DNA of 37,426 nt. Source: a virus. The stretch lies in the UHGV virus genome UHGV-0281131. One strand, 5' to 3'. The translations under genes and the position numbers were made by a program. This document shows, piece after piece, positions 33,648 through 36,830 of this stretch. How positions within the stretch are numbered: the stretch's first letter is position 1; every line of letters starts with the position of its first letter. The notes beneath the pieces were generated by a model that was given only the letters and a program-made list of their open reading frames with translations, was not told the DNA's origin and searched no databases.

Positions 33648-33955
33648 GGTACAAAATCCAATTTTTATAGGTACAACATCAAAATTAATGTACCTTTAAA
33701 AACTACAAAATCCAAATTATAACTACATGTCCTTTTATTATTGTAGTTAATTATTTCCTATTTAGAAGAATATCTTTATATTCTTGTTTCTTTTAATATA
33801 TTTCGGCACCTCTCAAACCTTTAATTTTAGAGGGCTAGAGAAGACAAAAAACGACAAAATCCAGAGTATTTAACTACAAAATCCAAAGCAAAAAACGACA
33901 AAATCCAGAGTATTTAACTACAAAATCCAAAATATAGAACTACAAAATCCAAAAT
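33648..33955. repeat. Iteron-type replication origin: ~7 copies of ACAAAATCCA(A/G) core including two 44-bp tandem units
   Basis: AACTACAAAATCCAAA at 33701, 33872, 33916 and 33937. GACAAAATCCAGAG at 33853 and 33897. A 44-bp direct repeat spans 33844-33887 and 33888-33931. Lies immediately upstream of the Rep gene. Confidence 0.7.
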
Positions 33956-33990
33956 TGAACGACATTATTTATTGACTATGTAGTTTTAAT

Positions 33991-35148
33991 ATGATAAACT
34001 TTTCTATAAAAGGAGGGGTAAGCTTGGGAAAGGAAAACTACAATTTGATACACCACAAAGATTTTCATAAACTGCAACTGCAGAATTACAATGTAAAAGA
34101 AAGGGCAATATTTTTAACTCTATGTTTGAAACTTATGGAACAGGAAGATGATGTTGTTAGTTTAAAAATATCAGAACTAACAAAAATATCCAATTATTCT
34201 CCAAGAAAAAAAGGGGATAATATAATACTTTTTCTTAAAGAATTAAATGACAAATTAAAAACTATGGAAATAATACAAACTAAAGAAAATGGAGATTTTA
34301 AAAGTATAACATTGTTTCCAACTTTTGAAGTCAACCAAGATTTTGGAGAGGTAAAAATAAGAGTAAATCCAGATTATAAATATCTTTTAAATCATTTACA
34401 ACCACCATTTACAATACAAGATGTTGTTGAATACTCTGGACTTAAAAGTGGATATTCTCAACTGATGTATAGCATTTTAAAAAATTGGAATAAAGCTAAG
34501 AAGATTAGTTTTAAATTAGATGACTTTAAAAAAGAGATGGGAATACCTGAAAATTATAGAATTTGTGATATAGATAGTAGGGTTATAGCTCCAATAACAT
34601 CAGAGCTTTCAGTTTTATTTAATGGGCTAAAGGTTGAAAAAATAAAAAATGGAAGGTCGGTAGCTGGGTTTGAGTTTACCTGGAAAGATAACAAGGTTGA
34701 TGATGTAGTAGTTGATGAAGAGGAAATAGAGATTTCAGAAGAGTTATTATCAGCTATTGAGAAAGCAGAGAAAAACAGATTTATAAAACCTTTCTTGACT
34801 GATGATAATATAATAAAACTTTTAGATAAATTTAGCCAAGAACAATTAGAAAAAGGATTGAAAGCTGCTTATGATTTAATTAAAACAGAATTTACAAGTC
34901 TTAATTACCTAGTAAAAGTCATAGAGGACAATATCAATAAACCTAAAAGAAAAATAGTTATAAGAAGAACTAAGGAAGCAGAAAAAATAAAAGAAGTTGA
35001 AGAGCCAGTAGTCAAGAAAAAAACAACTCCACTAACTAATGAAGAATATCAAAACGCTATAAAAATATATCAAGCCACTGGAGAAGATTTTGGTTATGAA
35101 CCAGAGGAAGTAAGAGAGTATATAAAAAAATATAAGGATTTAATATAG
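33991..35148 (+). CDS. rep: Replication initiator, Rep_3/RepB-like (iteron-binding); likely true start TTG at 34024 after AAAGGAGGGG
   Basis: N-terminal region (NYNLIHHKDF...ERAIFLTLCLKLMEQEDDVVSLKISELTKISNY) fits the winged-helix Rep_3 pattern. Preceded by iterons. The strong SD sits inside the track ORF, 6 nt before an in-frame TTG. Confidence 0.6.
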   Translation: MINFSIKGGVSLGKENYNLIHHKDFHKLQLQNYNVKERAIFLTLCLKLMEQEDDVVSLKISELTKISNYSPRKKGDNIILFLKELNDKLKTMEIIQTKENGDFKSITLFPTFEVNQDFGEVKIRVNPDYKYLLNHLQPPFTIQDVVEYSGLKSGYSQLMYSILKNWNKAKKISFKLDDFKKEMGIPENYRICDIDSRVIAPITSELSVLFNGLKVEKIKNGRSVAGFEFTWKDNKVDDVVVDEEEIEISEELLSAIEKAEKNRFIKPFLTDDNIIKLLDKFSQEQLEKGLKAAYDLIKTEFTSLNYLVKVIEDNINKPKRKIVIRRTKEAEKIKEVEEPVVKKKTTPLTNEEYQNAIKIYQATGEDFGYEPEEVREYIKKYKDLI

Positions 35149-35158
35149 GGGGGGTAAA

Positions 35159-35917
35159 ATGAAAATAATATCATTCATAACAGAAAAAGGTGGCACTGGT
35201 AAGACTACTGGTGCCAGAGAAGTTGCTGGGGTACTATCTCTAGTTCATAATAAAAAAGTTTTGCTTATTGATTGTGACTTTCAACAAAATCTAACTGAAA
35301 GTTTAATAGAAGCAGACCAAGAAAAAAATATCTTTAGAGCTATAAAACAGAAAGATTTAAAAGGAAATATAATTCCTATTGAAAGAGATGGAAAACATAT
35401 ATTAGATTTAATACCTGCAAGTCTTAATTTAAAGGACTTGGAATATAAAAAAGACAGTGTTGATATGGAAATGATTTACCTAGATTTAAAAAAGGGACTA
35501 GAGCAACTTCAAGAATATGACTATATAATTATAGATTGTAGACCAGATATGAGAGCAATAGAAAGGGCTGTGTTAAAGTGCAGTAATTATGTTATCACTC
35601 CTGTTGAAGCTCATCTATTTAGTTTTAGAGGATTTGAATTATTAGAGAACTTTATACAAGCTCTTAAAAAGGATTTAAACACTCCATTCATTCATTTTGG
35701 TTATATCAATAGGCTACAAAATGACAAAGAGATATTAGAAGCCACTGAAGATGTCAGAAATTCATTTGATAACATATTAGATACTCCTATAAGAGATAAT
35801 CTTAAAATATTTAAAGCCTCACAGACAGGACATTTTATAATAGAATATAGTTCTACATCAAATGGGGCTAAGGATTTTAAAGCTCTTACAAAGGAGTTGT
35901 TAAATAAATGGCAATAA
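35159..35917 (+). CDS. parA: ParA/Soj-family partition ATPase
   Basis: Deviant Walker A KGGTGKTT at residues 10-17, then ParA-typical motifs (LLIDCDFQQNLT; DYIIIDCRPD). Confidence 0.8.
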   Translation: MKIISFITEKGGTGKTTGAREVAGVLSLVHNKKVLLIDCDFQQNLTESLIEADQEKNIFRAIKQKDLKGNIIPIERDGKHILDLIPASLNLKDLEYKKDSVDMEMIYLDLKKGLEQLQEYDYIIIDCRPDMRAIERAVLKCSNYVITPVEAHLFSFRGFELLENFIQALKKDLNTPFIHFGYINRLQNDKEILEATEDVRNSFDNILDTPIRDNLKIFKASQTGHFIIEYSSTSNGAKDFKALTKELLNKWQ

Positions 35918-36573
35918 AAATAAATAGAAAACCTATAATTTTAAAAAAGAAAGAAAATACAGAAGTAATTATTCCAGAAAAAAATGACATAGAAGATATA
36001 TTGAAATATGATTATAACAAATTGGAAAATTTTTCAGATGATGATAAAAATCAATTAATTATATTTGAGAAAAGTATTATCACTAAAAAAGAAAATATCT
36101 CTTCTTTAGCACTACAAATAGGACAAAACTTGGAAGAGGCAAGAAAACTATTTGATAGATACTCTGAAAATCCAAGTTCATATATGGAATGGTACCAAGC
36201 TTTAGGATTTAATAAAGACCAAGTATCACTACTTAGAGGGAGATATAAGTTATCTTTAAGCTATCCGCAATACAACAATTTAATTTCAGACTTTTCAGAC
36301 AGAGAAGTAAAAGCTTTAGTGAATAAAAAGGTTAATGTAAGAATCCTTGAGAATATTTTATCTTCTGGAATAAGAACAGATAAAGAGATAAGGAAAGCTA
36401 TTTCGAGCATGCTCGAAATAGAAGACGCCGAGATAGTAGAGGAATCTGAAAAAGATAAGCTGGTATCCAGACTATCGGAGGTAGAGGCGAAAATAAGAAA
36501 ATTAGAGGAAGAGTTGAAAGAATTGAAAACTGTTAAGGCTGAACTAAAAGAAAAGATAAAGGGGTTGAGCTAA
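35908..36573 (+). CDS. Putative partition adaptor / centromere-binding protein (ParB-like role)
   Basis: 221 aa, overlaps the parA stop. C-terminal coiled-coil (EAKIRKLEEELKELKTVKAELKEKIKG). No canonical ParB box recognised. Confidence 0.35.
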   Translation: MAIKINRKPIILKKKENTEVIIPEKNDIEDILKYDYNKLENFSDDDKNQLIIFEKSIITKKENISSLALQIGQNLEEARKLFDRYSENPSSYMEWYQALGFNKDQVSLLRGRYKLSLSYPQYNNLISDFSDREVKALVNKKVNVRILENILSSGIRTDKEIRKAISSMLEIEDAEIVEESEKDKLVSRLSEVEAKIRKLEEELKELKTVKAELKEKIKGLS

Positions 36574-36830
36574 TGAAATTAAATGATTTATTAAAAGGAA
36601 ATAGAGAAAATATTCAAAGTATAACTATAACAAATGGGTTGATAACATATTTTAAAAATGATGTAGAAGTTTTAGATATTATAGACATACAAGATGGATA
36701 TAAAATTATTGTTGGAGATATTACTTTAAAATTAGATGAGTTCCAAGCAAGTATAGAAAGTTATTACAGTACAGATAAAATATTTTATTTTGACTTAATT
36801 GATTTTAAGGTTGATTTAAAATTAAAATAG
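36573..36830 (+). CDS. Hypothetical protein (85 aa), last gene of rep-par operon
   Basis: ORF whose start overlaps the previous stop (TAATG). Followed by a terminator. Confidence 0.35.
   Translation: MKLNDLLKGNRENIQSITITNGLITYFKNDVEVLDIIDIQDGYKIIVGDITLKLDEFQASIESYYSTDKIFYFDLIDFKVDLKLK

Follow-up and report, generated by a model that had tools for sequence, protein, structure and literature searches.

How does a phage that encodes a repressor-type switch and no integrase persist in its host? The question is raised by the virus genome UHGV-0281131, a stretch of 37,426 nucleotides that was analysed at its full length and is referred to below as the window. Between positions 33,648 and 36,830 it holds a plasmid-type maintenance module, consisting of an iteron origin, a Rep_3-family initiator, a ParA-type ATPase, a partner protein encoded by an overlapping gene and a small open reading frame (ORF). 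We infer extrachromosomal maintenance in lysogens, and give a probability of roughly 0.8 to the phage persisting there as a low-copy plasmid rather than in an integrated state, that is, as a phage-plasmid. The initial annotation, made from the sequence alone, had proposed the same lifestyle. That interpretation is supported by the present analysis, every testable sequence-level prediction drawn from it having been borne out, while episomal maintenance itself is deduced from gene content.

A closed circular genome of a Fusobacterium phage

The two ends of the window proved to be contiguous. In a related locus (L001), positions 8173-10449 correspond, at 98% identity, to window positions 35150-37426 and positions from 10450 onward correspond to window position 1 onward, so that the two are colinear over the 37426 to 1 junction with no base missing or extra. 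The gene that lies across this junction is the following.

37370..37426, minus strand: 3' end of the holin gene, the 5' part of which is found at positions 1-399 (456 nt in sum, 151 codons plus stop; Phage_holin_4_1 in relatives)

The same arrangement recurs in 10 independent metagenome contigs, where the 94-amino-acid (aa) gene of the right window end adjoins the 151-aa holin gene and the left-end series (genes of 134, 283 and ~135 aa) follows, with an 83-aa gene between the holin and 134-aa genes in some of them. Because the holin gene spans the junction and comes to exactly 456 nt, the window is a closed circle; this continuity and the colinearity of L001 therefore leave no DNA outside it. 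The ends abut exactly, with no terminal repeat or overlap between them, and the window is a complete circular phage genome. The initial annotation had described lysis and replication genes as reaching both window edges: such genes are indeed present there, but the edges themselves are joined. The scenario that it had named as refuting a plasmid lifestyle, in which host genes, att repeats and an integrase lie just outside the window, is excluded by the closed circle seen in L001 and the ten contigs.

Contig sizes and ends agree with a unit genome of this length. IMG/VR contigs measure 37,040-37,824 bp, near-complete contigs cluster at 36.4-38 kb, and contigs of ~37 kb are permuted, with ends at window positions 3758, 7087, 29316, 29532, 32105 and 33634. 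The genome (30% G+C) carries a set of virion, packaging and lysis genes comprising portal (PF12236), capsid (PF19821), the terminase large subunit, collagen-like fibres with Peptidase_S74, the holin and an endolysin-like gene. Its host is Fusobacterium, as the 30% G+C fits: two RefSeq proteins annotated in F. gonidiaformans (WP_337742984.1 and WP_337742981.1, assembly GCA_037419695.1) share 90%-identity clusters with the window portal and capsid, a partner homologue is assigned to F. mortiferum, and a scan of species-representative genomes with the partner profile matched only one metagenome-assembled genome, of Fusobacteriaceae. Many public assemblies hold this lineage, several of them with sample names in the style of human gut cohorts. 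No near-identical DNA was found among GenBank phages and PLSDB plasmids, the database matches of the portal protein are all of 24% identity or less, and exact look-up of the window recombinase and of a 665-aa protein returned neither on record. Scans for tRNAs, Rfam families and defence systems gave no relevant match.

To judge from its gene content, the phage is temperate and podovirus-like. The candidate lysogeny switch includes one regulator on the minus strand.

30290..30607, minus strand: Cro/CI-type helix-turn-helix (HTH) regulator (HTH_3), 105 aa, divergent from the early operon

The early operon is preceded at 30710-30738 by a perfect TTGACA-17-TATAAT promoter. At the position of the HTH regulator, most relatives encode a protein of 216-218 aa with HTH and Peptidase_S24 domains, the architecture of LexA-like CI repressors. 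The immunity region is polymorphic: window positions 29550-30607 hold the 105-aa HTH_3 gene and a 238-aa gene of no known function, an S24 repressor and a 200-aa gene occupy the region in L001 (2356-3012), L018 (3921-4577) and L038 (3357-4013), and further combinations occur elsewhere.

No integrase accompanies this switch. None of the window ORFs of at least 150 aa matched the Phage_integrase or large-serine-recombinase families in Pfam, in agreement with the initial annotation; the scan left out a single ORF, which is antisense, lies inside the portal gene and is likely spurious. A partner protein identical to that of the window was found in 259 blocks of an assembly collection, and the contigs that contain it are all below 50 kb (longest contig per block: <2 kb in 28, 2-5 kb in 106, 5-10 kb in 45, 10-20 kb in 10, 20-50 kb in 70 and >50 kb in 0). 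Loci centred on the partner, the portal and a tail gene (including L045) tile the whole circle, and no flanking host genes were present in the loci read. Together with the permuted contig ends, this is the pattern expected of an extrachromosomal element.

The replication and partition module

The module is composed of the features listed here by position.

33498..33517, plus strand: intrinsic-terminator-like hairpin that closes the upstream early operon (Gp157/Sak); left border of the module
33647..33748, plus strand: two solitary iterons (AGGTACAAAATCCA at 33647 and AACTACAAAATCCA at 33701), candidate auxiliary or copy-control Rep sites
33651, 33705, 33854, 33876, 33898, 33920 and 33942, plus strand: exact matches to the iteron motif ACAAAATCCA
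33740..33800, no strand: candidate DNA-unwinding element, with the highest A+T of the origin (82-85% in 40-bp windows; genome overall 70% AT)
33850..33951, plus strand: five-iteron array of 22-bp units, consensus AAC[GT]ACAAAATCCA[GA]A
33958..34000, plus strand: rep promoter-like site (TTGACT at 33972-33977, 17-nt spacer, TG-extended TAAACT at 33995-34000)
34024..35148, plus strand: Rep_3-family initiator, 374 aa (WH1 at residues 10-153, WH2 at 164-220, C-terminal extension of ~150 aa)
35159..35917, plus strand: ParA-type partition ATPase, 252 aa, of type Ib-like size (deviant Walker A motif KGGTGKT at residues 10-16; no N-terminal HTH extension)
35908..36573, plus strand: partner protein, 221 aa, overlapping parA by 10 nt; proposed centromere-binding protein
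36398..36421, no strand: perfect 24-bp palindrome inside the partner gene, with halves CTATTTCGAGCA and TGCTCGAAATAG; candidate parS-like centromere
36573..36830, plus strand: ORF of 85 aa without a family match, its translation coupled to that of the partner gene
36824..36850, no strand: bidirectional terminator-like hairpin (12-bp stem, T and A runs on its flanks) at the end of the rep-parA-partner operon

Terminator-like hairpins stand on both sides, and the module is therefore a discrete transcription unit. Within its origin, the seven exact copies of the iteron motif all lie on the plus strand between 33651 and 33951 and are matched by 0 copies elsewhere in the window; with up to one mismatch the count is 15, a number reached in 0 of 100 dinucleotide-preserving shuffles. 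The last five iterons have a spacing of 22 bp and belong alternately to the subtypes AACGACAAAATCCAGAG and AACTACAAAATCCAAAG, so that Tandem Repeats Finder calls both a 44-bp unit (2.5 copies, 90% matches, score 181) and a 22-bp unit (4.7 copies). The initial annotation had noted about seven iterons with a 44-bp tandem duplication ahead of a Rep_3 gene, and this description is reproduced here. A degenerate copy and an inverted half-iteron lie downstream of each solitary iteron (AGGTACA..TGTACCT at 33669/33689 and AACTACA..TGTAGTT at 33721/33742). The -35 box of the rep promoter-like site likewise has an inverted half-iteron on either side (AACGACA at 33958, TGTAGTT at 33979), the two being inverted copies of the 5' half of the iteron, and L028 has a comparable GGTAC..GTACC pair around its -35. 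Origins of the Rep_3, pSC101, F and pPS10 families are opened by Rep monomers bound to direct repeats, while repression is exerted by dimers on an inverted repeat. The inverted half-iterons at the rep -35 box form, on this pattern, a candidate autorepression operator.

The initiator was assigned from Pfam matches to Rep3_N (PF01051, 61.3 bits against a cutoff of 22.4) and Rep3_C (PF21205, 43 bits against 21.1). Its start is probably TTG 34024 rather than ATG 33991, because that codon lies five bases after the ribosome-binding site AAGGAGGGG (34010-34018) and the resulting 374 aa is the length given by gene callers in most relatives. The closest Rep proteins are plasmid initiators, from Cetobacterium somerae (NZ_CP092524.1, 41% identity) and Fusobacterium varium (AP017969/AP017970, 37%), at 82-84% coverage, and matches to Rep are found in 1,857 plasmid records and 1 phage record.

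Two clades of initiator are found at this position among the related phages. Clade A Reps (window, L018, L028 and L036) are 374-378 aa long and 66-100% identical to the window Rep, and in every case xTACAAAATCCA repeats lie upstream of their genes. Clade B Reps (L001 and L034) are 319-323 aa long and ~31% identical to clade A, and their genes are always preceded by GAAGTTTTGTCA repeats with a spacing of ~21 bp. Over these six loci, drawn from two phage backbones, clade A is paired with TACAAAATCCA and clade B with GAAGTTTTGTCA; Rep clade and iteron sequence co-vary in the way of a cognate pair. The block swapped in L001 (4701-8173) corresponds to window positions 32138-35150, ends exactly at the parA ribosome-binding site and takes recombination genes along. 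Genomes with a clade B Rep have a YqaJ exonuclease and a 319-aa protein in place of the Gp157 and Sak of the window; the initiator would seem, from this, to be traded as a unit with the annealing/exonuclease pair.

The gene for ParA begins 11 nt after rep. Its domain calls are AAA_31 (3.6e-35, residues 1-175) and CbiA, its PHROG label is 'ParA-like partition protein' (1e-47), and among NCBIfam models it matches PrgP best (2.8e-23), at a score that falls far short of the equivalog cutoff. In the predicted architecture of the partner protein, the N-terminus is disordered and rich in Lys/Arg, the core is helical and residues 181-220 form a C-terminal coiled coil; the top structural matches to the predicted fold of the core are the DNA-binding domains of ParB/Spo0J and KorB. 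A Walker-type ParA, an overlapping coiled-coil partner gene and a small ORF had all been read from the sequence before, and all are recovered. Neither the partner nor ten distant members of its family matched any Pfam family above cutoff, and among solved structures none matched the partner in sequence. The family comprises 251 cluster representatives at E <= 0.001. A weak, sub-threshold match of one distant member (P0208) to UPF0137 (PF03677, E 5e-4), itself an uncharacterised family of plasmid proteins, might be a sign of remote relatedness between the two families. The 85-aa ORF, which the initial annotation had counted as part of the module, is present in most podovirus-type relatives, but L032, L022 and the myovirus-type loci described below lack it; being patchy in this way, it is an accessory part of the operon.

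The 24-bp palindrome in the partner gene is the one perfect palindrome with zero loop in the genome. It lies within positions 35150-36832, which is the only DNA near the module that is common to all podovirus-type genomes. Variants of it were found in the partner genes of the related loci listed here, each written as its two halves.

L032 (62% protein identity): CTATTTCTAACA and TGTTAGAAATAG
L037, and L036 with one edge mismatch: CTATTTCGAGAG and CTCTCGAAATAG
L028 (11/12 pairs): CTATTTCGACCG and CGGCCGAAATAG
L033 (37% protein identity): TTATTTCTAGCA and TGCTAGAAATAA
L044 (one central mismatch): TTTCTAGCG and TGCTAGAAA

At least five variants are dyad-symmetric through the centre, with substitutions in one arm compensated in the opposite arm, while the peptide encoded by the palindrome shifts along (SSML, SNML, SRAL, STAA). 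When synonymous codons were resampled with the amino acids fixed, the observed symmetry had P = 0.0005-0.007 in each of six lineages, and no other 24-nt window in the partner genes of these lineages exceeded 9/12 pairs. On these comparisons the palindrome appears clearly to be under DNA-level selection. Additional palindrome half-sites elsewhere in the genome were not above chance. The partner would be the binding protein of this palindrome: we lean, by a modest degree, towards a model in which a dimeric partner with a ParB/KorB-like HTH binds the parS-like palindrome in its own gene and activates the small ParA.

Two other positions for the centromere were considered. The initial annotation had expected it near 36.85-36.95 kb; this is an accessory segment, and the position was rejected, as the DNA is absent from L018-L026, which encode an identical partner. 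Use of the iterons as centromere, in the style of pAD1, is unlikely because the par genes are conserved (98% identity) in relatives where Rep and iterons are replaced by an unrelated set.

Assignment of the par genes to a known subtype gives a mixed result. The small ParA is a type Ib trait, and the partner with a predicted HTH and the palindromic site are traits of type Ia/ParB, with other traits of each lacking. Where type Ib has a ribbon-helix-helix partner, the prediction here is of an all-helical protein in which a ParB/KorB-like HTH core is combined with a coiled coil. No repeat family near the par genes provides the repeated centromere/operator that type Ib systems have upstream of parA; the DNA upstream of 35150 is itself swapped in relatives whose par genes stay 98% identical. 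Our best reading for these reasons is a system that would work in a ParABS-like manner and is a clean member of neither type Ib nor type Ia/ParB.

A cassette of the same order, with the same type of iterons, is carried by a second and unrelated type of phage with genomes of 43-49 kb, which is myovirus-like in having baseplate-J and sheath-initiator genes. Its Rep (67% identity), ParA (52%) and partner (~50%) are accompanied by a small serine recombinase 62% identical to that of the window. This phage type additionally encodes a RepA_N initiator and Rad52, which suggests that its Rep_3 cassette is dedicated to maintenance rather than to vegetative replication.

The recombinase of the window, the only one recognised in it, is encoded at a separate locus, in the virion operon, as the initial annotation had reported.

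17377..18072, minus strand: small serine recombinase of the resolvase/invertase family, 231 aa, among virion genes; proposed multimer resolvase of the plasmid form

It matches PF00239 (Resolvase) with 73.8 bits and has the catalytic-serine motif YCRVST at residues 4-9. A non-coding leader of ~330 bp (18073-18400) with its own TATAAT precedes the gene, and contains short inverted repeats and no convincing conserved sub-sites. The closest database homologues (53-56% identity) are found on Clostridium plasmids of 8-11 kb and on a plasmid of Fusobacteria bacterium ZRK30. We read the enzyme as a probable multimer resolvase of the plasmid form on account of its plasmid-borne homologues and of its own leader with TATAAT. 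No long inverted pair flanks a segment near the gene.

In the mechanism that we propose, Rep_3 monomers would bind the five 22-bp iterons, and perhaps also the two outlying ones, unwind the A+T-rich DNA next to them and bring in the host replisome for theta replication, while Rep dimers on the inverted half-iterons around the -35 box would repress the rep-parA-partner operon. The 221-aa partner would dimerise via its C-terminal coiled coil, bind the 24-bp palindrome in its own gene through the ParB/KorB-like HTH core, and stimulate the ATPase of the small ParA on the nucleoid through its basic N-terminal tail, so that the copies segregate. Plasmid multimers would be resolved by the small serine recombinase, expressed from a separate locus and its own promoter, and a CI/Cro-type switch at ~30.3-30.7 kb would silence the virion and lysis genes.

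Alternatives to extrachromosomal maintenance

Several observations weigh against a plasmid prophage with the components assigned above. No DnaA box with up to one mismatch was found in the origin. The PHROG label of the recombinase is 'DNA invertase', and neither repeat searches nor alignment with the upstream region of the myovirus type gave a convincing res site upstream of its gene. A ParB/Srx (CTP-binding) N-terminal domain was not found in the partner by Pfam, and the palindrome is present in a single copy per genome. Its co-variation could in principle serve an mRNA hairpin instead; symmetry through the central bases fits a two-fold DNA site, because the loop of an RNA hairpin would not need it. 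The remaining points of this kind bear on two other lifestyles, and are taken up with them.

The phage may be strictly lytic or pseudolysogenic (in a carrier state), with Rep_3 and its iterons as the vegetative origin, ParA and the partner positioning replicating genomes or serving another phage function, and no stable plasmid prophage. Rep_3 could also serve lytic replication, and would at least contribute to it, since no other initiator, helicase or polymerase can be recognised in the window; yet the partition pair and the plasmid-type recombinase travel between two unrelated backbones, one of which already has RepA_N. The circular map taken alone is equally expected from a permuted lytic genome, for which reason the argument on lifestyle rests on gene content: the divergent CI/Cro-type switch in the window, the LexA-like S24 repressors in most relatives, and the plasmid-borne nearest homologues of Rep and recombinase all speak against a purely lytic phage. 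Most contigs are metagenomic, where free virions are sampled too, but proteins of the same 90% clusters are annotated in the RefSeq-listed F. gonidiaformans assembly. We consider a lytic or carrier-state lifestyle unlikely on balance.

Less probable still is an integrating prophage with an unrecognised integrase, either the small serine recombinase or an unannotated ORF, in which the plasmid genes would be a relic or a back-up. The serine recombinase does have a weaker PHROG match to an 'integrase' family (3e-11), but the usual substrates of resolvase/invertase-type enzymes of such size are sites within a single molecule. Several window ORFs of 200-280 aa are without annotation, and could on this account be invoked. 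The distribution of the element speaks against integration, in that contigs with the partner stay below 50 kb in all 259 blocks, the loci that tile the circle contain no host gene, and no relative of the portal turned up when 185,579 species, each represented by one genome, were scanned. The longest partner contig (P0001, 49,413 bp) is 12 kb above the unit genome and lies outside the loci read, as does an 83,673-bp contig with a myovirus-type partner homologue (P0041), which is about one genome length above unit. These oversize contigs could be insertions, concatemer assemblies or host-flanked copies.

A tyrosine recombinase is present in one relative, the 44.9-kb L021, and was examined as a hidden integrase. 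This Xer-like protein of 302 aa is encoded among tail-fibre-like genes (L021 12239-19609) and shares 47% identity with a recombinase of 318 aa whose gene is located, in the myovirus type, between oppositely oriented Gp10_C tail-fibre fragments (L029 15560-20180). Its Xer-like profile and its place among tail-fibre genes make a fibre-switching enzyme more likely than an integrase, and the loci of L021 and L029 may be fibre shufflons.

That the module is a plasmid/phage assembly chimera, as might be thought from contigs that often break at the hard-to-assemble repeats of the iteron array (L038 and L039, at window position 33634), is effectively refuted by the identical gene order across both module borders in dozens of independent assemblies from various studies and assemblers, including IMG/VR and a long-read polished contig (L020).

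Relation to known systems and neighbouring genes

Maintenance as a low-copy plasmid places the phage beside several described systems. The element fits the published definition of a phage-plasmid, and the curated types include P1, N15, SSU5/pHCM2, pKpn, pSLy3, pMT1, AB_1, cp32 and others (10.1101/2025.08.29.673033). That paper makes 0 mentions of Fusobacteria, and no report of a phage-plasmid in Fusobacterium or Fusobacteria was found in the searchable literature. While the lifestyle is already well established, a member in Fusobacteria is apparently new, as no report was found.

The P1 plasmid prophage is organised as oriR iterons, repA, incA, parA, parB and parS, with Cre/lox elsewhere. The window is alike in its order of iteron origin, initiator, ParA and DNA-binding partner with the (candidate) centromere at the far end, in having a site-specific recombinase for putative dimer resolution at a separate locus, and in being apparently temperate without an integrase. 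It differs from P1 in showing no detectable sequence relationship, the sole P1-type match being a weak one (29%) of the recombinase to a mobile-element gene. Its ParA is small and lacks the N-terminal HTH, the 221-aa partner lacks the ParB N-terminal domain, and no composite parS of the IHF type is apparent; its recombinase is of the serine rather than the tyrosine type, it has no separate lytic replicon, and it is a podovirus-like genome of 37 kb against the 94 kb of the myovirus P1.

Plasmids of Fusobacteriaceae with a Rep_3 (RepB-family) initiator have the Pfam WH1 and WH2 family and the host family in common with the window. They differ in being annotated as plasmids, whereas the window replicon sits in a complete virion-encoding genome. 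The enterococcal pairs PrgP/PrgO (pCF10) and RepB/RepC (pAD1) resemble the window in combining a small ParA and a small partner beside an iteron-type replicon. In the enterococcal pheromone plasmids the partner is reported to bind iteron-like repeats; the constancy of the window-type par genes across the exchange of Rep and iterons sets them apart from these pairs.

ParB/Spo0J and KorB (IncP) are comparable to the partner in the predicted fold of its core and in the palindromic candidate site, which parallels parS and OB, and many chromosomal parS sites lie within the gene of the partner itself. The window partner differs from them in the missing ParB/Srx domain, in a long C-terminal coiled coil that apparently dimerises, and in one site per genome. 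Tentatively, and with somewhat less than even confidence, we suggest that the partner and its intragenic palindrome represent an undescribed minimal family of centromere-binding systems, characterised by a ParB/KorB-like HTH and a coiled coil without a CTPase domain, a ParA of type Ib size and a single site. Its cassette would be mobile between unrelated Fusobacterium phages, with a related serine recombinase at a separate locus in both backbones. Such a family, if real, would be a hybrid of type Ia and type Ib partition, and would put a stable replicon at hand for Fusobacterium species that are difficult to manipulate genetically.

These features bear on three fields. For lifestyle prediction in viromes, an integrase-less phage with a repressor would otherwise be counted as lytic or as of unknown lifestyle. 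For Fusobacterium genetics, the compact ori-rep-par cassette of 3.3 kb, which comes in two interchangeable Rep/iteron specificities, is a candidate backbone for stable vectors. For partition biology, the partner is an unannotated family with a candidate site that appears to be under DNA-level selection.

Other genes of the window were characterised alongside the module. Downstream of it, positions 36851-37262 form an accessory 'moron' with a 94-aa ORF, for which no family match was found, behind two promoter-like sites in tandem, both of which have a GC-rich palindrome in the stretch from -35 to -10 (TCCCAGTGGGA near 36872 and GGTCTCAGAGACC near 36927). Its non-coding part is 81% conserved in an unrelated myovirus-type phage (L028 12304-12428), and the whole segment is missing in many close relatives. 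The first gene of the early operon (30804-31250, plus strand, 148 aa) has a partial match to DnaJ (J-domain) and a weak PADLOC match to the 'EH signature' region of ZorC; some relatives have a RadC-domain gene in its place.

On the minus strand, positions 664-1068 encode a 134-aa protein with a weak Peptidase_M15_4 match, where several relatives have a 145-aa Phage_lysozyme (L018 11736-12173); the endolysin gene is, on this comparison, apparently exchanged among relatives. Two tail-fibre-like proteins with long collagen triple-helix repeats (9-, 18- and 45-nt tandem repeats) are encoded at 2363-4868 (minus strand), and one of these collagen-like fibres ends in a Peptidase_S74 intramolecular-chaperone domain; the fibres of relatives measure 318-455 aa. 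A virion-operon protein of 1,842 aa (6836-12364, minus strand) has no Pfam match, its counterparts in relatives being 1,633-1,844 aa long. In the head block, a 130-aa protein (21849-22241, minus strand) contains a crAss001_48-related ('Sequestin') domain (PF21825).

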